From Candidatus Liptonbacteria bacterium (lineage in GTDB: Bacteria > Patescibacteriota > Minisyncoccia > UBA6257 > 2-01-FULL-56-20): DNA of 64,000 bases. Below are positions 2,951 through 62,472 of the stretch, one piece after another. A program made the position numbers and the translations under genes. The notes below the pieces were generated by a model, which made no database searches, was not told where the DNA came from, and was given only the letters and a program-made list of their open reading frames with translations. Where the stretch lies: contig VGJV01000001.1 in the NCBI GenBank assembly GCA_016867315.1, positions 34,863 through 98,862 on the forward strand. Direction: 5' to 3'. The number at the start of each line of letters is the position of its first letter. The first letter of the stretch is position 1.

Positions 2951-4008
2951 GCCACTTTATTTTTTATTTCCTGCGCTAAGTAAGGATTCCACATCGCACC
3001 GGTCGCGGCCATCACCGCATCTGCCCCCGCCGCGCGATATTCCTCATAATCCTCCGAGGAAGAAACTCCTCCTACCCCCACTATCGCATATTTCATCCCT
3101 AACTCGCTGCGGAGCGCGTGAAGCCGACGAGTCATCTCAAGACCTGCCCATTTGATTGCGTGCCCACATACGCCGCTGCGCAATCTTCCCTCGGAAGGCA
3201 AGGCCTGCTTGCCTACTTTATTTCGGATCTCCGCAGGAATGGTATTGATCGCCGCAATCGCCTGCACAAGAGGTCCAATCCCTTCCACTAATGCACGCAA
3301 TACAGAGTCCTTTTCGAAGTACGCGATCTTTATAATCAGCGGAGTGTCCCCTATTTCTCTTTTAATGGCTTCTACTGCCGCCTTGGCTCGTCGAGCATCA
3401 TAGCACAAGAGCGCCGAGGAACCTTCATTCGGACAGCTGAAATTCGCTTCGAGCACGGGTGCGCCCGTCTCCTTCGTGAGCCGCGCGGCGTTCGCAAAGT
3501 CCTGCATATACCCTTCCGGAGCGCCTCCCTGGGTCGCCTGAAAACTCCCGACCACCATCTGCCCCGGGCGCGCATATGCTACCGCCTCCGCTAAATCCCT
3601 TTGCCAGAATTCCGGGGCGGCGGAGGGTACCCCAAAAGAATTCGTGATCGAGAGCGGCCCTTCATATTTTTCATCTGCTACGAGCGGCATCTCCGCTTTT
3701 TCGAGCGTGAGATCTCCCTCCACATCCACCCGCAATACGTTCGGCCAGGGGTGCGAGGCGCGCTCCTCCGTGCGCACCGTTTTATACACCGCAATATCAA
3801 ACCCCTTATCAAGCGCCGCCTTTACGAATTTCCCGTTTACGAGAGGACCCGCCGGAATCCCAAAGGGAATGTGCACGGACTTTCCTAAAAATGTTTCTCG
3901 CGGCTCGCTTTTTTCTTCATACACTTTGCCATCCGCAAAGACTCCAAACGGCCCTTCGGAAAAATTTTCTTCATAGGATTTCCGCGGGTCGTAGAAGGGA
4001 GTATGCAT
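2947..4008 (-). CDS. dihydroorotate dehydrogenase-like protein, class-1 family (DHOD/DPD fold) with about 40-aa N-terminal extension; start moved to MHTPFYD
   Basis: Motifs GIPAGP, ANFSCPN, VGVGGV; long ORF start would overlap folA by about 85 nt, internal Met leaves a 6-nt gap. Confidence 0.6.
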   Translation of the reverse strand: MHTPFYDPRKSYEENFSEGPFGVFADGKVYEEKSEPRETFLGKSVHIPFGIPAGPLVNGKFVKAALDKGFDIAVYKTVRTEERASHPWPNVLRVDVEGDLTLEKAEMPLVADEKYEGPLSITNSFGVPSAAPEFWQRDLAEAVAYARPGQMVVGSFQATQGGAPEGYMQDFANAARLTKETGAPVLEANFSCPNEGSSALLCYDARRAKAAVEAIKREIGDTPLIIKIAYFEKDSVLRALVEGIGPLVQAIAAINTIPAEIRNKVGKQALPSEGRLRSGVCGHAIKWAGLEMTRRLHALRSELGMKYAIVGVGGVSSSEDYEEYRAAGADAVMAATGAMWNPYLAQEIKNKVA

Positions 4009-9255: not shown

Positions 9256-11038
<1,783 letters not shown>

Positions 11039-11329: not shown

Positions 11330-11421
11330 TGAACGTATGACCTATGACAAATAACCAATGACCAAGAAGGAACCCGAATCCCTCGTCACAAGCCATCTGT
11401 CATCAGTCATTTGTTAATGAC

Positions 11422-11447
11422 TGGCACTCCCGACTAAAGAGTGCTAA
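11422..11447 (-). promoter_or_regulatory. CIRCE operator (HrcA binding site) upstream of groES
   Basis: TGGCACTC-N9-GAGTGCTAA matches CIRCE consensus TTAGCACTC-N9-GAGTGCTAA (right half perfect, left half 7/9). Confidence 0.6.
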
Positions 11448-11455
11448 CAGGAGGT

Positions 11456-11483
11456 ATTTTAGTCGCACCTGAAGAGGTGTCAA
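11456..11483 (-). promoter_or_regulatory. sigmaA-type promoter for groESL (TTGACA-N16-TAAAAT on minus strand), TSS predicted at CIRCE edge
   Basis: Reverse complement reads TTGACAcctcttcaggtgcgacTAAAAT; -35 lies in a palindrome GTGTCAAcaccTTGACAC just after the NUDIX stop. Confidence 0.45.
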
Positions 11484-13202: not shown

Positions 13203-13910
13203 TTACTGACCTTTAAGCGCGGCTTCAATCGCCTCCACTACGCGAGTGTCTCCCGGCGCGAGTCCCCGAATTTTCGTTTCATTTACAAAGTTGGTCGGCG
13301 TGGCATCCACTCCTGCAGTACGACCACCATTAGTCTCTTCCTCGACGTGGTCAAGGTATTTCCCCGAATCCAAACAGGAAGTGAATTTTTTCTCATCCAG
13401 CTTTAACTCTTTCGCGAGCCTCAAGAAAAGGTCTTTGTTCAAATTACCATTATGCTCCTTACCATCTGCGATTTCCGCACGATACAAGGCATCATGGTAA
13501 CCCCAAAATTGCCCTTGCTCGCGAGCGCACTCCGCTGCAAGCCCCGCCGCGGCAGATTCCGGGCCTAAAAATTGGAAATTGCGGAAAATAATTTTCACCT
13601 TTCCTGCGCGTACGTATTCATCCCGAATTCCAGGTTCTATATCCGAGAAGAATCGGCCACAGAAGAGACATTGATAATCTCCATACTCGATGAGCGTTAC
13701 CGGAGCTTTTGCATCTCCCAACACCACATCTTCTGGAAGCACTTTTAATATCGCTGCGGCAGCATTTACTTCCCCGCCTTCGGATGGCGCGTTGTTTTTT
13801 GAACCCACCATGTACACAATCGAGCCCGAGATAAGCACACCCGCGATCAAAATACTTACCGGCAAAAGTAAGTCTCGCGAAGGTCCAGAAGAAGGAGGGG
13901 TTTCGGTCAT
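13203..13910 (-). CDS. DsbA-family thiol:disulfide oxidoreductase, membrane-anchored
   Basis: N-terminal TM, CLFC active site, thioredoxin-like fold length. Confidence 0.7.
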   Translation of the reverse strand: MTETPPSSGPSRDLLLPVSILIAGVLISGSIVYMVGSKNNAPSEGGEVNAAAAILKVLPEDVVLGDAKAPVTLIEYGDYQCLFCGRFFSDIEPGIRDEYVRAGKVKIIFRNFQFLGPESAAAGLAAECAREQGQFWGYHDALYRAEIADGKEHNGNLNKDLFLRLAKELKLDEKKFTSCLDSGKYLDHVEEETNGGRTAGVDATPTNFVNETKIRGLAPGDTRVVEAIEAALKGQ

Positions 13911-14017
13911 TGGAGGAATACTACCAAGCGAAAGCGGAAGGGGTCAACCCGGTAGTAGATCCGCGAGTGGGAATTCTCAGAGTGAACTCGCGGATTCACT
14001 ACCGGGTCAATCCTTGC

Positions 14018-17984: not shown

Positions 17985-19301
17985 ATGTTCCTTCTCCTCA
18001 TAGGAGACATCGCGACGCTCTATATAAGTCTCGTGGCCACGCTTCTTATTCGTCACGGGGCGGCTTTCGGGCCGGAACTCTACGACCGGCATTTGGCACC
18101 GTTTTCCATAATTTTTGCTCTTTGGATACTGGTCTTCTATACCGCGGGACTTTATGACATCCGGCGGCTACGCAACAGCCTGGAATTTTTCAAAACGTTA
18201 TCGCTCGCCCTCGCGACGAACGCTCTTCTTACGGTTACTCTTTTCTATCTCGTGCCTTTCTTTGGGATCGCTCCCAAAACGAATCTTTTTATCTTCCTTG
18301 GCATCTTTACGGTGCTCGAAGTGACGTGGCGCCGATTTTGGAATTTGTATGCAGCGAAGGGAGAAGCGCCAAATAAAGTGGTACTTATCGGAGAAGGACA
18401 AAGTGCTCGAGAAATCGAAGAGATTATTTCTCACAATCCCCAACTCGGCTACTCTCTCGTTAAACATTTGCCTCCCACTCTTCCCACGGGGGTAACCCCG
18501 GGATTCCTCCGAGAGTCGCTCGCTGCCTCGGGGGGAAATTTGGTGGTAATAGATAGAAAACTTAAAAGCATTCCGACGCTGAATCGAGAGCTCTATGCCC
18601 TGCTCCGCACCGGCGTAGAAGTTAAAGATATTCCTTCTTTTTACGAATCGCTTTTTAAAAAAGTCCCTCTTCAAGAAATCGAGGAAGGTTGGATTCTAGA
18701 GAATATTGCCGATCAAACCCGGTTTTATGATCCTTTGAAGCGGGGTTTCGAATTTTGTGCGGCCCTGTTTCTTTTCATAGCCCTTCTGCCGCTCGAAATT
18801 CTCTTAGGACTTTTGGTGATTCTTACTTCTCGCGGGCCCGCTATTTATAAACAAGTACGCGTAGGGAAATATGGGGAGGAATTCACCCTTTATAAATTCC
18901 GCACCATGCGGCGGGATGCAGAACGACATGGGCCTCAGTGGTCGGGGCCGCAGGATGCTCGCGTAACCTTGGTTGGCAAGATTCTCCGCCACACACATCT
19001 CGATGAACTGCCTCAACTTTGGAACATACTTCGCGGCGACCTTTCTTTTGTAGGGCCCCGGCCGGAACGACCGGAATTTGTACGAGACCTCAAAGAAAAG
19101 GTTGCGTATTACGAAATCCGGCTCCTCGTGAAACCAGGAGTGACCGGGTGGGCACAAATCAATTATCGAAGCGATATCACCACGGAGGACGTAGCGGAGA
19201 AAATTAAATACGATATCTACTACGTGAAGAACCGGTCGCCTATTTTGGATATCGCGATTGTATTTCGCACATTAAAGACCTTATTTGTGACGCCGAAATG
19301 A
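17985..19301 (+). CDS. undecaprenyl-phosphate sugar phosphotransferase (WbaP/bacterial sugar transferase family)
   Basis: N-terminal TM block; C-terminal FRTMRRDAE...DELPQLWNILRGDLSFVGPRPERPEF signature. Confidence 0.85.
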   Translation: MFLLLIGDIATLYISLVATLLIRHGAAFGPELYDRHLAPFSIIFALWILVFYTAGLYDIRRLRNSLEFFKTLSLALATNALLTVTLFYLVPFFGIAPKTNLFIFLGIFTVLEVTWRRFWNLYAAKGEAPNKVVLIGEGQSAREIEEIISHNPQLGYSLVKHLPPTLPTGVTPGFLRESLAASGGNLVVIDRKLKSIPTLNRELYALLRTGVEVKDIPSFYESLFKKVPLQEIEEGWILENIADQTRFYDPLKRGFEFCAALFLFIALLPLEILLGLLVILTSRGPAIYKQVRVGKYGEEFTLYKFRTMRRDAERHGPQWSGPQDARVTLVGKILRHTHLDELPQLWNILRGDLSFVGPRPERPEFVRDLKEKVAYYEIRLLVKPGVTGWAQINYRSDITTEDVAEKIKYDIYYVKNRSPILDIAIVFRTLKTLFVTPK

Positions 19302-23075: not shown

Positions 23076-23105
23076 TTGACAAATTGGGTTATTTTTGATT
23101 AATAT
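23076..23105 (+). promoter_or_regulatory. sigma70-like promoter TTGACA-N17-TTAATA upstream of IMPase-like gene
   Basis: Consensus -35, 17-bp spacer, AT-rich -10, about 30 nt before the ATG. Confidence 0.4.
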
Positions 23106-23135
23106 GGCACCAATCATTCCCCAACTTAATAATGA

Positions 23136-24167
23136 ATGACTACTGAACTACTAACTAACCGAAGGAGCAACATTAAAGCTATATCGAAGATACTGGAAGA
23201 AACAGGACATCAGCGGCGGCAGTTTTTGAGACATTTAAATCTGCGACACTTCCCCGACGAGCACTACCCTCTGATCAATGGGGTGGTCTCCGCGGGATTC
23301 GCGGCCGAGCCTTTTGCGGGGCTCGACACAGAAAAACAGGATGAGCGCGAAAGCCACCGAGCTGTTTCTGGCGAAGGCGACGCCATTGCCCAACAAGTGC
23401 TCCTCACTGAACTTTCGGCAGCGTATCCCGATGCCGAATTTCTCCTTGAGGAAGATACATCACCGCATGCGAAATGCTTACCTAAGCAAAATCCTGAGGG
23501 GATTCTCCAGGGTAGAAAGATCGTGGGCGATCCAATCGACAGTTCCACGCGCTTCGGCGGGGACATGAGCCAATGGTGCACTGCGGCGGGCATGCTTCAG
23601 GATGGTCACGTCGTGGGCGGGGCAATCTTTGCTCCCACGATGAATGGCGGCCTCCTGGTCACGAGCCACAAGGGCAAAGGAGTTGTTGTCGTTGAGAAAG
23701 GCGGGCAAAAAGTGTTGACGGATACGACCCCTATTCTTCCTCGAGAGGTGAAAAAGAGTGTCGTACTCCTCGGCGTGGACACCCTGCAGTATCCGGCAAT
23801 CTGCAACTTCATCCCTAAAGTCACAACTGCAGTGCGCGGGGTCTATACGAGTGGGTCCGGAATTCTGGGTCTTGCTTTGGTCGCCGCAGGACGAGCTCAA
23901 GCGATCTTCCAGACTCCGCAAAGGATCTGGGACATCATCCCGGGGATTTGCGCTCTGCGCGAAGCTGGACGCACGGTGCTCTTCTATCGTCGGGACCCAC
24001 AAACCGGATTGCCTACTGAAGTTGGGTTGGACTTCCAAGCATTCTGCTATGATCGCCCGAATCGATTGGGTATCATCGCAGGCGATATTATGCTCGTAGG
24101 TTATCTTGCTCAATTGCTTCAGGAAGCCGGGCCGCTACTCAAGGCAGACGAGAGTCTCAAAGATTAA
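23136..24167 (+). CDS. inositol monophosphatase/CysQ family phosphatase
   Basis: Metal site EEDxS (LLEEDTSPH), DPIDSS, WDIIPG motifs. Confidence 0.7.
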   Translation: MTTELLTNRRSNIKAISKILEETGHQRRQFLRHLNLRHFPDEHYPLINGVVSAGFAAEPFAGLDTEKQDERESHRAVSGEGDAIAQQVLLTELSAAYPDAEFLLEEDTSPHAKCLPKQNPEGILQGRKIVGDPIDSSTRFGGDMSQWCTAAGMLQDGHVVGGAIFAPTMNGGLLVTSHKGKGVVVVEKGGQKVLTDTTPILPREVKKSVVLLGVDTLQYPAICNFIPKVTTAVRGVYTSGSGILGLALVAAGRAQAIFQTPQRIWDIIPGICALREAGRTVLFYRRDPQTGLPTEVGLDFQAFCYDRPNRLGIIAGDIMLVGYLAQLLQEAGPLLKADESLKD

Positions 24168-56621: not shown

Positions 56622-57593
56622 TTATGGGCGGGAGGGAGTATTATTCTCCGAACGATTCACTGCGGTTTCGATTTGTTGCCTAACGGATTGGGCCTCATTC
56701 GTCAAAGTTTCTATTCGGTCGGAAAGTACTTCCAGAGGAGAGGCATTATTGGGAGTGAGATCTACAAGATGAAGTGCATAGCGGTAATATCCCTCCCCCA
56801 CCCGCGGCGTAACATCGATCGAGCGATAGGGGCCATCCACCAGGAAAGAGGTGCGGCAATTACCATCTACATTTCTTCCCGCTACTGAAATAGTGGAACA
56901 TGGAACGGGAGTGCTTACTATAGTGTTTGACTCCCTATCGATGGTCAATTTTTCGATGGCGGCTTCCACGACTGCCAGGTGGGGTTTATTTGAAGCGCCA
57001 TTATATAGGAGCCTACTCCGTGAGCGTTCGGTAATAGAGAAATCTTCTATGTAGCCGGGTTTAAAAATTCCCTTAAATGTTCCTATGATGGTGTCTCTGG
57101 GAATATCCGGAGGGGCTTTAATTGCTGTTTCGTTGCCGGCCGGACCGGACGAGTAATAACATGACTCTTTATTTTTTCCGCCTGTTTCCGGACCGCTGCC
57201 GCTCATCATTGCAATGTGGTATGTCTCAGTGGTGATGCATTTGAGATTGTTATGGCGGGGTGATGCAATATTTATTCTTTCTTTGATAAAATCCTCATCA
57301 CCTGATTTCCCAGCAAAAGAGCGTGCCCGGAGGGAATTATGAGGCTTCAGTGTCCAAAGCGATTGAATTGAGTAGTTTTGAGTAAGCGTGAGACAACTCG
57401 TGTCGTTGGTGGGACGCGTTTCTTTTCCGGTAGTCGCGCAACTATAACTACCCGTCTGAGTTTTCGAATAAAAAACCTGATCAATTACTGCTTCTGGTAA
57501 TCCATTCTCGGAGTCGGCGCGCACCGGAGCTGCCCCAGCTGCTGCAATAACGGCGGAGGCGATAGTGACCCCTAAATACCCCATCCATTTCAT
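56622..57593 (-). CDS. hypothetical secreted cysteine-rich protein
   Basis: Signal peptide MKWMGYLGVTIASAVIAAAGAAPVRA; 8 Cys in mature part; no known domain. Confidence 0.5.
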   Translation of the reverse strand: MKWMGYLGVTIASAVIAAAGAAPVRADSENGLPEAVIDQVFYSKTQTGSYSCATTGKETRPTNDTSCLTLTQNYSIQSLWTLKPHNSLRARSFAGKSGDEDFIKERINIASPRHNNLKCITTETYHIAMMSGSGPETGGKNKESCYYSSGPAGNETAIKAPPDIPRDTIIGTFKGIFKPGYIEDFSITERSRSRLLYNGASNKPHLAVVEAAIEKLTIDRESNTIVSTPVPCSTISVAGRNVDGNCRTSFLVDGPYRSIDVTPRVGEGYYRYALHLVDLTPNNASPLEVLSDRIETLTNEAQSVRQQIETAVNRSENNTPSRP

Positions 57594-58280: not shown

Positions 58281-59981
58281 ATGGCGGGATTTATTAAAAA
58301 AATAATTGGGTCGTTCTTCCCTCAAGAGCGGGCCCTTTTTTTTATGGCAATAGCCTGCTTTGGAATCAGCGCCGTAGCGCTTGCGGCTTTGAAATTGGAG
58401 CGGGCCACGACCGCAATCCCCACGCATGGCGGAGAATATGTGGAGGGGGTCGTGGGACAACCCGCCTATGCGAATCCGGTACTCGCTTTGACTGAAATTG
58501 ACAGGAGTCTCGTCCGACTCATATTTTCAAACGTACCTGCGCTCGCAGAGAAATTGGAGGCGGGAGATCGGCAACGCAGCTGGAACATACGTCTTCGAGA
58601 AAATCTCACGTGGCATGATGGGGCGAAACTCACCAGTGATGACGTCATCTTTACCATCCAAAAGATTCAAGACCCCGAGTCTCGCTCTCCCCTCGCTCTA
58701 TCGTGGCAAGGAATTACCGTGCGACGGGTGAGTGAGCTGGAGTTTATTATCCAGCTCCCCAGCCCCTATATCTTCTTTACCGAAAATTTAAATAATCTTT
58801 TTGTGCTTCCCAAGCATCTCTTTGCTGATATTCCGACCTCGAATTGGCGACTCTCTGCCTATAACCTTAAGCCTATCGGGAGCGGACCCTATCAGTTCGA
58901 TTCTTACCATCAGCAACCAGATGGATTTATTGATCGTTACGCCCTACGAGCGATAAGAACTCCCTCGAGCTTGCCTCCCGGACGGGCAGATACCCCCCAT
59001 GTCGCGGCGTTCACTATGGAATTTTTCCGGAATATGGACGAGGCTTTTAAAGCGTTCAATGCAGGGAAAATCGATGGCTTGGGCGGAGTGGATATGACTC
59101 TTTTAAACGCCATTCAGCGACCTTATACACTCCACGCGTTTACCACTCCCAGTTATTACGCAGTTTTCTTAAACGGGACTCATAATAACGCTCTTAAAGA
59201 GCCTGTCGTCCGGAGCGTACTTTCTCGTGCTGTAGATCGTGAGATGTTAGTCTCTCGCGCGCTCGAAGGATATGGATTGCCTCAAGCAGGCCCACTTTTA
59301 GAATCTTCCCCCCAAGCGACAAGTACTGAGGTGAGCACTTCTACTCCTCGCGCAAGTTCAAGCAGCCTCTCGAATGAAGCACAACTCATTCAAGAACTCG
59401 AAGCTGCCGGCTGGAAGATGACTACTTCGAGCGAAGCTCGCGTGAGGTTTGAAGGGAACGCGAGTACTACCCTTAAAGCCACACTCCTTGTTCCGCAAGT
59501 GCCTTTCCTTATTACTACCGCCGAAATGCTTCGAGACTCCTGGCAGCGATTGGGAGTGGCGGTGACTCTCCGACCCACTACCCCCGAAGAGATTCTCGCC
59601 TCCGCAATTCGCAATCGTGATTATGAAATGCTTCTTTTTGGAAATGTGCTGAATCCTGCCGAAGATCTTTTTCCTTTCTGGCATTCTTCCCAACGGTTCT
59701 ACCCGGGATTGAATATTGGCCTCTATAACAATAAAAAGGCGGATGCGCTTACGGAAGAAATCCGAGGAGAAAGCAACGAGGAGAATCGTGAGAACAAATT
59801 AGCCGCCCTAGCAACTCTCATCACCGCCGATGTGCCTGCAATTTTCCTCTACTCCCCCGAATATCTTTTTGTGACTGCGAAGAATGTAGGTGGAGTGCAA
59901 CCGCGGCGCATTGCGAACCCACCGGAGCGCTTTTTGAACGCTGCAGCATGGTATGTAAAGACAGCCAGAGTGCTTAAATAG
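58281..59981 (+). CDS. ABC-transporter substrate-binding protein family 5-like (OppA/DppA fold), membrane-anchored
   Basis: N-terminal TM, about 560 aa, SBP_bac_5-like segments (WHDGxxLTSDDVIFT). Confidence 0.55.
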   Translation: MAGFIKKIIGSFFPQERALFFMAIACFGISAVALAALKLERATTAIPTHGGEYVEGVVGQPAYANPVLALTEIDRSLVRLIFSNVPALAEKLEAGDRQRSWNIRLRENLTWHDGAKLTSDDVIFTIQKIQDPESRSPLALSWQGITVRRVSELEFIIQLPSPYIFFTENLNNLFVLPKHLFADIPTSNWRLSAYNLKPIGSGPYQFDSYHQQPDGFIDRYALRAIRTPSSLPPGRADTPHVAAFTMEFFRNMDEAFKAFNAGKIDGLGGVDMTLLNAIQRPYTLHAFTTPSYYAVFLNGTHNNALKEPVVRSVLSRAVDREMLVSRALEGYGLPQAGPLLESSPQATSTEVSTSTPRASSSSLSNEAQLIQELEAAGWKMTTSSEARVRFEGNASTTLKATLLVPQVPFLITTAEMLRDSWQRLGVAVTLRPTTPEEILASAIRNRDYEMLLFGNVLNPAEDLFPFWHSSQRFYPGLNIGLYNNKKADALTEEIRGESNEENRENKLAALATLITADVPAIFLYSPEYLFVTAKNVGGVQPRRIANPPERFLNAAAWYVKTARVLK

Positions 59982-60015: not shown

Positions 60016-60044
60016 TTGACAGAAAGGAAATCACGGAGTATAAT
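60016..60044 (+). promoter_or_regulatory. perfect consensus sigma70 promoter TTGACA-N17-TATAAT
   Basis: TTGACAgaaaggaaatcacggagTATAAT read directly; 98 nt upstream of tRNA-Leu. Confidence 0.6.
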
Positions 60045-60095
60045 GAAGGCATATTTCGTAATTCCTCCTTCTTTCTTTTGTTCTGATTATTTTCC

Positions 60096-60122
60096 TGCGG
60101 ATGTGTCCGCACGTTTTTCTTT
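60096..60122 (+). terminator. intrinsic terminator-like hairpin TGCGGA-tgtg-TCCGCA followed by CGTTTTTCTTT, located between the promoter and tRNA-Leu
   Basis: GC-rich 6-bp stem, 4-nt loop, 9-nt T-rich tail. Confidence 0.5.
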
Positions 60123-60141
60123 GCGATAGTGTTATTTACAA

Positions 60142-60222
60142 GGGCAGGTGGTGGAATGGCAGACACGTACGGTTCAGGGCCGTATGCCGTAAGGCATGAG
60201 GGTTCAAGTCCCTCCCTGCCCA
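60142..60222 (+). tRNA. tRNA-Leu (anticodon CAG), type II with long variable arm
   Basis: Acceptor GGGCAGG/CCTGCCC, D-stem GTG/CAC, anticodon stem TACGG/CCGTA with loop TTCAGGG, variable hairpin TGCC-GTAA-GGCA, T-arm GAGGG-TTCAAGT-CCCTC, discriminator A; CCA not encoded. Confidence 0.85.
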
Positions 60223-60249: not shown

Positions 60250-60585
60250 ATGGCGACATACGAAGATTTTCAAAAAATAGACATTCGGGTTGGGAAGATT
60301 ATTAAGGTCGAAGATTTTCCTGAAGCTAAGAAACCCGCATATAAACTCACTATAGATTTTGGGCCCGAAGTCGGGACCAAAGTCTCGAGCGCCCAGCTCG
60401 TGAAACACTACACTAAAGAAGCACTTCTCGGGAAACAGGTGATGGGAGTGGTAAATTTTCCTCCACGGAAGATAGGGCCCTTTTCATCTGAAGTGCTCAC
60501 GCTCGGAGTTCCAGATAGTGAGGGGCTCTGCGTACTCCTTGTTCCCGACAAACCAGATGCCATTATTGGCGGACGGTTATATTAA
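60250..60585 (+). CDS. csaA: tRNA-binding protein (CsaA/Trbp111 EMAP-fold); ORF-track start at 60196 lies inside the tRNA, true start MATYEDF
   Basis: IDIRVGKIIKVEDFPEAKKPAYKLTIDFG pattern of CsaA/MetG C-terminal domain; 111 aa. Confidence 0.75.
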   Translation: MATYEDFQKIDIRVGKIIKVEDFPEAKKPAYKLTIDFGPEVGTKVSSAQLVKHYTKEALLGKQVMGVVNFPPRKIGPFSSEVLTLGVPDSEGLCVLLVPDKPDAIIGGRLY

Positions 60586-60609: not shown

Positions 60610-62472
60610 ATGACAGAAAAAAATACAGAAACCATGACAGAGAAACATACCCCTGCACATCGCGGACGGCCTTCGCGTATCTCTCGGCCCACGAGCGGAC
60701 GCACCTCGCGCCCGGCGTTGGCCACTCGTTCCCGCATTCATCACGCTCCTTCCCGAGGAGAGGCGAAACGCACACCTCACCCTAAATCAGTAACACCCGA
60801 CAACGGAGAAATTGTGCCGCTTCGGTTTGTGCCATTAGGAGGGTTGGGAGAGATCGGGCGGAATATGATGTTTTTCGAATACAAAAACGAAATTGTGGTA
60901 ATTGACGCCGGCCTTCAATTCCCCGAGGAAGCGACCCCAGGGGTGGACTATATTATTCCTAACACTACCTACCTTGAGGAGCGGCGCGGGAACGTGCAGG
61001 CCTTGATCATCACCCACGCCCACTACGATCATATCGGCGCGCTTCCCTATGTACTCGACCGCATCGGGAATCCCCCGGTCTACACCACTCCCCTTTCCCG
61101 CGGCATTATCGAGAAACGCCAAGACGATTTCCCGAACAAACCCAAGCCCGCCATGATCAACGTTAAAGCGGGAGATGTCGTGCAGCTTTCGAATTATTTC
61201 AAAGCGCATTTCTTCTCCGTGGATCACACGATCCCTGAATCTGTAGGGGTAGTTTTGGAAACTCCCGCGGGGAAAGTGACTAACCTCGGGGACTTCAAAA
61301 TCGAATACGACGAGCACGGCAACGCGTATCGTCTGGACGAGCTCGAACGGGTGGGCAAGATGGGCATTACCGCTTTTATGACCGACAGCACCGGGGCGGA
61401 CGTGCTCGAGCGCGCGCCTTCCGAACGGATTGTCGAGAAAAACCTCGAAGAGCTCTTCAAGAAAGCGGAAGGGCGTATTATTGTCGCGATGTTTGCTTCC
61501 GTGCTTACCCGCATCGGAGAAGTCATCAAAATTGCGGATACACTGGGCCGGCGCGTGGCGCTCTCGGGCTATTCTATGAAATCGAACGTGGCTATCGCGC
61601 AGAACCTCGGGTTGATTAAAGCCAAGGATGGAGTGCTCATTCCCCTCGAAGAGATCCACAAGTACCGCGACGACAAGCTCCTGATCCTTTCGACCGGCGC
61701 GCAAGGCGAATCGAACGCCTCGCTCATGAAAATCATCAACGGCGAACATCGGCAGGTAAAAATCAAACCCGGAGATACCGTAATGCTCTCTTCTTCCGTC
61801 ATCCCGGGAAACGAACGGAGCGTGCAGACTATTAAAGACGATTTAGCGCGGCAAGGGGCCATCATCTACCACTCGGATATTGTGGACATCCACTCTTCGG
61901 GGCACGCCACAAAGGGAGATCTGCAGCTCGCCATGAAGCTTATCAATCCGAAATTTCTCGTACCGGTGCACGGATATTATTACAAGCGATTTGTGAACGC
62001 GCAGAACGCCGTGGAAGTAGGTATCCCCCGCCAGAACGTCTTCCTTATGGACAACGGGCAGGTGGCGGAAATCACTTCGGATAGTTTTCGGATCACGCAG
62101 GAAACCGTACCCGCCACGTATGTCATGGTGGATGGATTGGGGGTGGGCGACGTCGAGGAAGTGGTGCTTCGCGACCGCCGCGCGCTTGCTCAGGAAGGCA
62201 TGGTGGTGGTAATTCTCACCATCGAGCGCGATAAAGCCCGCCTCGTAAAGAGTCCGGATATAATCTCCCGCGGGTTCATCTATCTCAAAGAAAGCCAAGG
62301 GCTCCTCGAAGAAATGCGGAAACGTATACGGTCTCTCATGAGTCGGCTCCCCACCCACCAGCCTCTCGAAGTGGACTATCTCAAAACTCTCGTGCGGGAT
62401 CAGCTCGGGCAATTCCTCTACAACAAGATCCGCCGCCGCCCCATGATTCTCCCGGTGGTTATCGAAATATAG
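60610..62472 (+). CDS. rnj: ribonuclease J (metallo-beta-lactamase/beta-CASP) with Arg/Ser/Pro-rich N-terminal extension
   Basis: ITHAHYDHIG (HxHxDH), beta-CASP and C-terminal domain; about 555-aa core plus about 75-aa low-complexity N-terminus. Confidence 0.9.
   Translation: MTEKNTETMTEKHTPAHRGRPSRISRPTSGRTSRPALATRSRIHHAPSRGEAKRTPHPKSVTPDNGEIVPLRFVPLGGLGEIGRNMMFFEYKNEIVVIDAGLQFPEEATPGVDYIIPNTTYLEERRGNVQALIITHAHYDHIGALPYVLDRIGNPPVYTTPLSRGIIEKRQDDFPNKPKPAMINVKAGDVVQLSNYFKAHFFSVDHTIPESVGVVLETPAGKVTNLGDFKIEYDEHGNAYRLDELERVGKMGITAFMTDSTGADVLERAPSERIVEKNLEELFKKAEGRIIVAMFASVLTRIGEVIKIADTLGRRVALSGYSMKSNVAIAQNLGLIKAKDGVLIPLEEIHKYRDDKLLILSTGAQGESNASLMKIINGEHRQVKIKPGDTVMLSSSVIPGNERSVQTIKDDLARQGAIIYHSDIVDIHSSGHATKGDLQLAMKLINPKFLVPVHGYYYKRFVNAQNAVEVGIPRQNVFLMDNGQVAEITSDSFRITQETVPATYVMVDGLGVGDVEEVVLRDRRALAQEGMVVVILTIERDKARLVKSPDIISRGFIYLKESQGLLEEMRKRIRSLMSRLPTHQPLEVDYLKTLVRDQLGQFLYNKIRRRPMILPVVIEI

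Follow-up and report, generated by a model that had tools for sequence, protein, structure and literature searches.

What purpose is served by an exact sigma-70 promoter, a CCUCCUU motif and a hairpin with a U-run lying in close succession directly ahead of a tRNA gene? We addressed this question for positions 60016-60141 of a 64,000-nucleotide (nt) stretch of DNA, here called the window, which comes from a Liptonbacteria-like Parcubacterium (Patescibacteria, candidate phyla radiation (CPR)), a tiny groundwater bacterium. A preliminary description had offered two answers, namely a C/U-rich small RNA (sRNA) of 70 nt that masks Shine-Dalgarno (SD) sites, or a leader acting as an attenuator. We find that the segment is a sigma-70-type promoter followed by the ~90-nt 5′ leader of a conserved tRNA-Leu(CAG)-csaA-rnj operon, and that CCUCCUU is a conserved pyrimidine box, (TAAtt)-nCUCC-UU(U), not an anti-SD device.

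TTGACA, a 17-nt spacer and TATAAT match the sigma-70 consensus at 12 of 12 positions. This is the only such match on either strand of the window, in which we estimate that ~0.02 would occur by chance. The promoter thus exceeds chance, and it is conserved at orthologous loci, bearing out its earlier designation as a textbook promoter. Transcription is predicted to start at an A 7 nt past the -10 hexamer, and the equivalent position in relatives reads A or AC. The CCTCCTT motif lies at 60064-60070, ~13 nt into the predicted transcript, where it had been noticed before, and it proved to be the conserved part of the leader. As RNA, the region is written 5′-UAAUUCCUCCUUC-3′ and 5′-AUAUUUCGUAAUUCCUCCUUCUUU-3′. 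The elements of this part of the segment are as follows.

60016 to 60021, plus strand: -35 hexamer TTGACA; TTGAC is invariant across aligned relatives and in register with the box
60039 to 60044, plus strand: -10 hexamer TATAAT; TA...T is kept at orthologous loci
60051, plus strand: predicted transcription start, placed by the usual sigma-70 spacing
60060 to 60070, plus strand: promoter-proximal pyrimidine box AATT-CCTCC-TT, whose core CTCCTT (60065-60070) falls at about +15 to +20 of the transcript

The evidence for the box comes from comparison. A search with RNase J yielded 80 orthologous Patescibacteria/Parcubacteria loci, labelled L001, L002 and so on. For an unbiased count, the best promoter (10/12 or better) no more than 400 nt from the tRNA was taken, and each CTCC in the following 60 nt was recorded. 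CTCC started 17-21 nt past the -10 hexamer in 26 of the 41 loci with a good promoter, and any other offset was seen at most once. The hexamer CTCCTT by itself occurs 69 times in the window, which is not beyond chance. Aligning the upstream regions on CCTCC brings the -35 and -10 hexamers into register.

Among 36 aligned instances of the box, collected with one mismatch permitted at any position of CCTCC, CTCC is invariant (36/36), and all 17 mismatches fall on the first C. The base directly before CTCC is C in 19 loci, T in 8, A in 8 and G in 1, and the three bases on its 3′ side are T in 30, 26 and 21 of the 36. The bases before the box tend to TAATT or TAAGT, and the flanks are A/U-rich and depleted of G. 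Variant pyrimidine boxes occur as well, with TTTCTTAT in L007, L073 and L075 and CTCTC in L059 and L061. The remainder of the leader fails to align, even among Liptonbacteria, and the genomes sharing the box have RNase J identities of only 51-85%. Anything from about 5 to about 300 nt may lie between the box and the tRNA, and in many loci the gap is only 5-10 nt. Conservation of the leader in relatives therefore holds for the promoter and the box and fails for everything else, including the hairpin discussed below.

The box accompanies the promoter of rnj, whether tRNA-Leu, another tRNA or no tRNA follows. In L043 and L072, which have no tRNA, TATAAT or TATACT is followed after 17 nt by CTCCTTT in the rnj 5′ untranslated region (UTR). 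In L027, tRNA-Arg and tRNA-Lys replace tRNA-Leu, and a second promoter, TTGATT-17-TATAAT, stands just before rnj with CTCCTTT 16 nt further on. L186 has the box with tRNA-Leu(CAA). The box is absent upstream of 5 of 6 other tRNA genes tested in the same loci, and it is absent from the other good promoters of the window. In the literature on Patescibacteria promoters and SD use, on RNase J leader elements and on NusB and Rho in the CPR, we found no description of it. Two further combinations of promoter and CCTCC were set aside as chance, one in L049, which lies inside a coding region, and one at window position 13947 on the minus strand, where a leaderless gene has CCTCC in its coding sequence.

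The layout of the operon is conserved as well. In 73 of the 80 related loci, rnj is closely preceded by tRNA-Leu(CAG), and the tRNA genes of these loci mostly lack an encoded CCA. The genes of the segment and its immediate surroundings are listed here.

58281 to 59981: family-5 solute-binding protein, the upstream gene
60123 to 60141, plus strand: final 19 nt of the 5′ leader, up to the predicted RNase P site, partly conserved with L044
60142 to 60223, plus strand: tRNA-Leu(CAG) without encoded CCA, 52 bits to the Rfam tRNA family
60250 to 60585, plus strand: csaA-like tRNA-binding-domain protein (Pfam tRNA_bind, 3e-14), 26 nt past the tRNA, named as a Liptonbacteria tRNA-binding protein
60610 to 62472, plus strand: rnj (RNase J; Pfam RNase_J_b_CASP, RNase_J_C and Lactamase_B), 24 nt past csaA and the last gene of the putative operon

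We found no promoter-like site between the hairpin and tRNA-Leu(CAG), in agreement with the earlier statement that this tRNA has no promoter of its own. Because the 26-nt and 24-nt gaps between tRNA and csaA and between csaA and rnj likewise hold no promoter-like site, we infer that all three genes are co-transcribed from 60016-60044. The read-through into tRNA-Leu, csaA and rnj that had been proposed is thereby supported, this promoter being the only one available.

Several observations concern the operon in its own right. The gene between tRNA-Leu(CAG) and rnj is optional and small, being csaA, a HIT-family gene or a 123-aa open reading frame (ORF) within the 73/80 synteny. In L082, L086, L088 and L001, a 123-aa ORF without a Pfam match lies between tRNA-Leu and csaA; it is not present in the window. 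In L026, L029, L033, L012, L016 and L018, a PGI/SIS-like gene precedes tRNA-Leu, a -10-like hexamer lies 6-9 nt before the mature tRNA 5′ end, and the -35 hexamer falls within the final part of that gene's coding region. In these loci the tRNA transcripts may be leaderless and may not require RNase P. The long leaders of L053 (about 3320-3400), L047 and L060 hold pieces resembling the 5′ part of tRNA-Leu, such as GCTGGGGTGGCGAAATTGGCAGAC in L053, and these are probably decayed tandem copies of tRNA-Leu.

We then considered the hairpin, which is present as described, although weak.

60071 to 60095, plus strand: T-rich, unstructured and non-conserved leader stretch (the whole leader is 50% T)
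60096 to 60122, plus strand: lineage-specific hairpin (60096-60101 paired with 60106-60111), CG and TTTTTCTTT, a weak intrinsic-terminator-like site

The stem has 6 bp, of which 4 are G-C, with a UGUG loop and a predicted energy of -8.3 kcal/mol, and the U-run TTTTTCTTT begins 2 nt later and ends at 60122. Its z-score of -2.0 is borderline, with 10 of 200 shuffled sequences folding equally well. With its CG spacer followed by UUUUUCUUU, it stands at the weak end for an intrinsic terminator. The region has 12 terminator-like sites, where shuffles gave 7.0 +/- 2.8; from the shuffle rate, ~0.05 such sites are expected per 90-nt stretch. An identical hairpin is found only in L081, a contig of the same species from another sample. 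Hairpin and T-run are absent from the nearest relatives L003/L082, L086, L088 (CsaA identities of 86%, 85% and 83%, respectively) and L001 (RNase J identity of 82%), all of which have the promoter and the box. When the same terminator criteria were applied to 25 leaders of at least 40 nt, a site emerged for the window and, in weak form, for L002, and for no other leader. L044 has in part the same T-run and the same 19 nt ahead of the tRNA (TTTCTTTGCGATAGTGTTATTTACAA in the window versus TTTCTTGCGGATAAAGTGATTTACCAA). Since L044 keeps these parts and has no hairpin, the hairpin looks like a recent insertion or duplication. In our reading, hairpin and U-run are a recent, leaky and lineage-specific feature.

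This bears on the second of the two original answers, in which the hairpin and U-run at 60096-60122 would form a conditional terminator metering read-through into tRNA-Leu, csaA and rnj. Such a role is suggested by their place between the sole promoter and the tRNA and by a stability above that of shuffles, and the order of promoter, hairpin, U-run and first gene resembles that of known leader attenuators. Those systems, however, have a competing antiterminator, a leader peptide or a fold that senses a ligand or a tRNA. In the minimum free energy (MFE) and centroid structures of 60051-60122 we found the hairpin only and no antiterminator pairing, and no Rfam riboswitch, T-box or leader family matched. 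The short stem, the 2-nt spacer before the U-run and the occurrence in only 1-2 of 25 leaders also argue against this role, and a terminator that worked efficiently would deprive the cell of tRNA-Leu(CAG). We consider the attenuator quite improbable.

The first answer, an sRNA masking SD sites, depends on how the host uses SD sequences. SD-like tetramers precede 10 of 60 window genes, close to the ~8 that we estimate for chance, so that window genes show no SD enrichment. A TAnnnT hexamer ends 5-9 nt before the start codon in 11 of 43 ATG genes, some with TTGAC 17-18 nt further upstream; examples of the -10-like hexamer are the genes at 13203-13910 (minus), 17985-19301 (plus) and 56622-57593 (minus). 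Judging from these sequences, leaderless mRNAs look frequent in this genome, and it shows no sign of relying on SD sequences. An SD-masking sRNA is therefore implausible, as there is no SD enrichment and there are few SD sites to mask. More generally, CCUCC motifs should not be taken as anti-SD devices where a lineage shows little use of SD sequences.

The likeness to the 3′ end of 16S rRNA that had been pointed out survives in part. CCUCCUU(U) is common to the box and the 16S tail (anti-SD, CACCUCCUUU), and the core CUCCUU matches. The bases upstream of this core, however, do not follow CACCUCC, with U/U/C in place of C/A/C, and without SD enrichment the motif has no obvious target.

A broader form of the sRNA explanation holds that the ~72-nt RNA (60051-60122), or a leader released by RNase P, acts in trans, either by pairing with mRNAs at G-rich or SD regions or as a sponge for another RNA. 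The very strong promoter, the unpaired CCUCC and the 3′ hairpin in the window would suit such an RNA. RoxS/RsaE of Gram-positives and the tRNA-spacer-derived sponge 3′ETS-leuZ offer partial parallels, having an unpaired C/U-rich motif in a short RNA and a link to a tRNA-Leu precursor. Unlike in those systems, the host lacks SD enrichment, the motif is anchored to the promoter, and only the 6-7-nt box is kept, with no sRNA body, as all other parts diverge freely. The terminator is missing from 23-24 of the 25 leaders and from the closest relatives, and is not conserved as a unit with the promoter. A weak match to the Rfam family AniS (RF02274; 28.7 bits, E = 0.0046) appeared in a 401-nt scan. 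It is below the gathering threshold of 50 and was lost in the whole-window scan, and we regard it as chance, resting on the terminator and the U-rich stretch. The scan of the whole window gave no match at gathering thresholds, a negative that is not conclusive in this mode, as the fast filters dropped even the tRNA at 60142-60222 (52 bits against a gathering threshold of 29). At E ≤ 0.1, the whole window gave no family apart from tRNA, so the Rfam comparison did not reveal a known sRNA. Taken together, a trans-acting sRNA is highly improbable.

Other ways of reading the leader were tried and rejected. A 28-codon ORF at 60043-60129 starts inside the -10 hexamer and hence outside the transcript. 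On the minus strand, AAGGAGG followed after 11 nt by an ATG at 60052 would open an ORF overlapping the promoter and the solute-binding protein gene in antisense; it is not conserved, its equivalent in L003 having an ATG with an immediate stop and that in L001 having no ATG. A leader peptide with leucine codons (UUC CUC CUU CUU) has UAA directly before the frame and no start codon. Pairing of the box with the D-arm or T-stem of the tRNA in the MFE structure (z = -1.6) shows no covariation across loci, and the box is kept where there is no tRNA. Pairing with an SD sequence in the 3′ trailer fails for want of a GGAGG downstream. A leader for loading Rho (rut-like) would be marked by an excess of C over G, which is seen in some leaders and not in general; this reading is not supported.

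How, then, might the box act? RNase P and RNase Z excise tRNAs from their precursors. In most loci the tRNA would be excised from between the box and rnj, and an element upstream of it could then not set rnj mRNA stability in cis. As this processing would part the box from the rnj mRNA, the box acts most likely during transcription, or else on the DNA. In the mechanism that we favour, transcription would start near 60051, cross the leader and supply tRNA-Leu(CAG), for which this is the only promoter, followed by csaA and rnj. An elongation or antitermination factor would recognise the box as single-stranded RNA in the nascent leader. This factor would keep RNA polymerase going across the untranslated leader, with its weak hairpin and U-run at 60096-60122, and across the tRNA as far as rnj. 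A ~72-nt RNA ending at 60122 would be a by-product at most. We propose this co-transcriptional, boxA-like recognition site tentatively, from the sequence comparison, as the best supported of several readings and short of an even chance.

The best specific candidate for such a site would be one for NusB/S10. The full Aquifex boxA reads GGCUCCUUGGCA. The box bound by NusB-S10 (NusB-NusE) comprises 8 nt, of which positions 3-8 are CUC(C/U)UU, and in Aquifex the positions singled out are G2, C5, C6, U8 and G9 (PMC3177189). The core CUCCUU corresponds to boxA positions 3-8, with CTCC in 36/36 loci and then T in 30/36 and T in 26/36. In L019, L023, L064 and L066, the box reads CTCCTTTAAGA, which agrees with the gamma-proteobacterial consensus GYTCTTTAANA (PMC5725501) at 9 of 11 positions. 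The site is predicted to be unpaired in the window, and its accessibility across loci is 0.61, compared with a transcript average of ~0.47, with no conserved pairing partner. BoxA is not confined to rRNA operons: it occurs in 5′ UTRs and precedes untranslated CRISPR arrays (PMC5725501; PMC7665894), and outside those operons it protects untranslated RNA from Rho (PMC7665894). The boxA of rRNA leaders, the suhB 5′ UTR and CRISPR leaders is like the present box in being a short single-stranded pyrimidine motif soon after the promoter and ahead of a long untranslated RNA. It differs in that our box lacks G2, keeps a fixed distance from the -10 hexamer and stands at a tRNA/rnj operon.

Several points weigh against this mechanism. 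G2 is reported to be critical for boxA (PMC3177189), E. coli and lambda tolerate no transversion there, and in the present loci the position is rarely G (C 19, U 8, A 8, G 1 of 36); the window's own box matches the 6-nt core alone. BoxA needs no fixed spacing to the promoter, and the tight 17-20 nt fits a DNA-level or initiation-complex element better. Loci with a 27-nt leader have no obvious need for antitermination. The PGI/SIS-type loci, with their different upstream gene, apparently transcribe the tRNA with neither leader nor box. The sixth of the other tRNA genes tested, tRNA-Arg of L027, is an ambiguous case: two copies of CCTCC stand upstream of it, at ~12 and ~24 nt from a -10-like hexamer that is weak, and outside the usual spacing. 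No rRNA signature was found in the window or in L001-L090, and the 55 window proteins scanned against Pfam include no NusB or Rho domain. Finally, all loci were collected through rnj, and specificity for the rnj operon was tested only against ~800 kb of neighbouring sequence. By analogy with boxA, NusB/S10 specifically is an uncertain choice of factor, and we think it rather unlikely.

One other observation touches on the Nus complex. The gene at 23076-24167 on the plus strand of the window, beside the polysaccharide cluster, encodes an inositol-monophosphatase-family protein and follows TTGACA-18-TAATAT (10/12), which ranks among the better of the other plus-strand promoters; its leader has no CTCC box. 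This family includes E. coli SuhB, a subunit of the Nus complex.

The fixed spacing raises the alternative that the box acts as DNA. Together with the TAATT just before it, it might bind a repressor or activator as an operator, or the initiation complex might contact it as a downstream promoter element; either way, it would set the rate of initiation or escape at a very strong promoter. The element lies at about +9 to +20, inside the stretch of downstream DNA that RNA polymerase covers, and its distance from the -10 hexamer is strictly held at 17-20 nt while everything downstream varies in length. For a transcription-factor site, however, four invariant and ~3 semi-conserved positions, with pyrimidines on one strand and no dyad or repeat, would be unusual. 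The G-depleted flanks and the tendency to be unpaired fit recognition of a single strand, and no conserved regulator gene is linked to the locus. We regard a DNA-level element as unlikely.

Another explanation connects the box with RNase J itself, a 5′-end-dependent enzyme. RNase J or a partner might read the 5′-proximal CUCC, or the box might mimic the 16S tail (CCUCCUUU), in either case tuning the fate of the primary transcript through feedback or as a decoy. The box does travel with the rnj-driving promoter whatever intervenes, and its distance of ~13 nt from the predicted 5′ end would be relevant to such an enzyme. Furthermore, CCUCCUUU is exactly the 8-mer of the 16S tail and occurs in at least 9 loci. 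RNases often autoregulate through their own leaders, as does RNase E and, reportedly, RNase Y. The autoregulatory leaders of rne, rnc, pnp and rny share with the present locus a conserved 5′-end element on a transcript that encodes a major 5′-end-dependent RNase; unlike them, the box has no structure, and a tRNA usually separates it from the rnj coding region. RNase III likewise controls its own synthesis through its leader (PMC4838370). Set against this are the tRNA between box and rnj in most loci, where processing by RNase P and RNase Z would uncouple the two, and the bias of a sample in which every locus was found through rnj. There is also no known CUCC specificity of RNase J, and the divergence from the 16S sequence upstream of the core counts here too. 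Like the DNA-level element, an RNase J-linked function seems improbable to us.

A more general formulation leaves the identity of the reader aside. The box would then be an undescribed, Parcubacteria-wide cis element ~13 nt from the start of the rnj operon, read by a factor that couples the output of tRNA-Leu and RNase J to the state of transcription or ribosome assembly. Candidate readers would be a divergent NusB/S10 complex, a 16S-tail-binding protein and RNase J, and the box would be a dedicated use of an anti-SD-like sequence outside translation initiation. We consider this formulation possible, with more doubt than confidence.

We also scanned metagenomes for the arrangement at other operons with the pattern TTGACN{17,19}TATNNTN{11,14}KTAATTYCTCCT. 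The scan gave at least 120 matches; among the matches listed, 117 were not rnj loci, and the true orthologues were only L168, L186 and L193. Most of these 117 belong to two recurring sequence families, the larger of which matches through the SD sequence and ATG of a conserved gene on the opposite strand. The scan is thus uninformative on whether the box occurs at non-rnj operons. The family of L092, L097 and ~70 others among the matches listed is widespread in soil and wetland, and its match to the pattern is an opposite-strand SD and ATG (AGGAGAAATTACCATG). At a distance of ~60 nt, the other strand has a similar GGAGATTACCATG, giving divergent gene starts that are unrelated to the element described here.

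There is almost no experimental knowledge of gene regulation in the CPR, and a strong promoter with a sharply placed, invariant box of 4-7 nt offers a concrete handle on the control of transcription in these bacteria. The class-wide arrangement places the main 5′-end-dependent RNase behind a tRNA, so that the rnj mRNA would owe its 5′ end to processing by RNase P and RNase Z. RNase Z cleavage at a CCA-less tRNA would leave a 5′-monophosphate on that mRNA. Such an end would make it a substrate of RNase J itself, and a feedback loop is possible; the tRNA-rnj arrangement makes feedback control of RNase J testable. Were the box a mere sequence preference linked to the promoter, the segment would be an ordinary tRNA-operon leader.

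Elsewhere in the window lie genes for GroEL and for enzymes of pyrimidine synthesis, along with a large cluster for polysaccharide synthesis. At about 11420-11483 on the minus strand, upstream of the chaperonin gene (9256-10923), TTGACA-16-TAAAAT is followed by TTAGCACTC-N9-GAGTGCCAG, a CIRCE-like inverted repeat whose sequence suggests control of groESL by HrcA.

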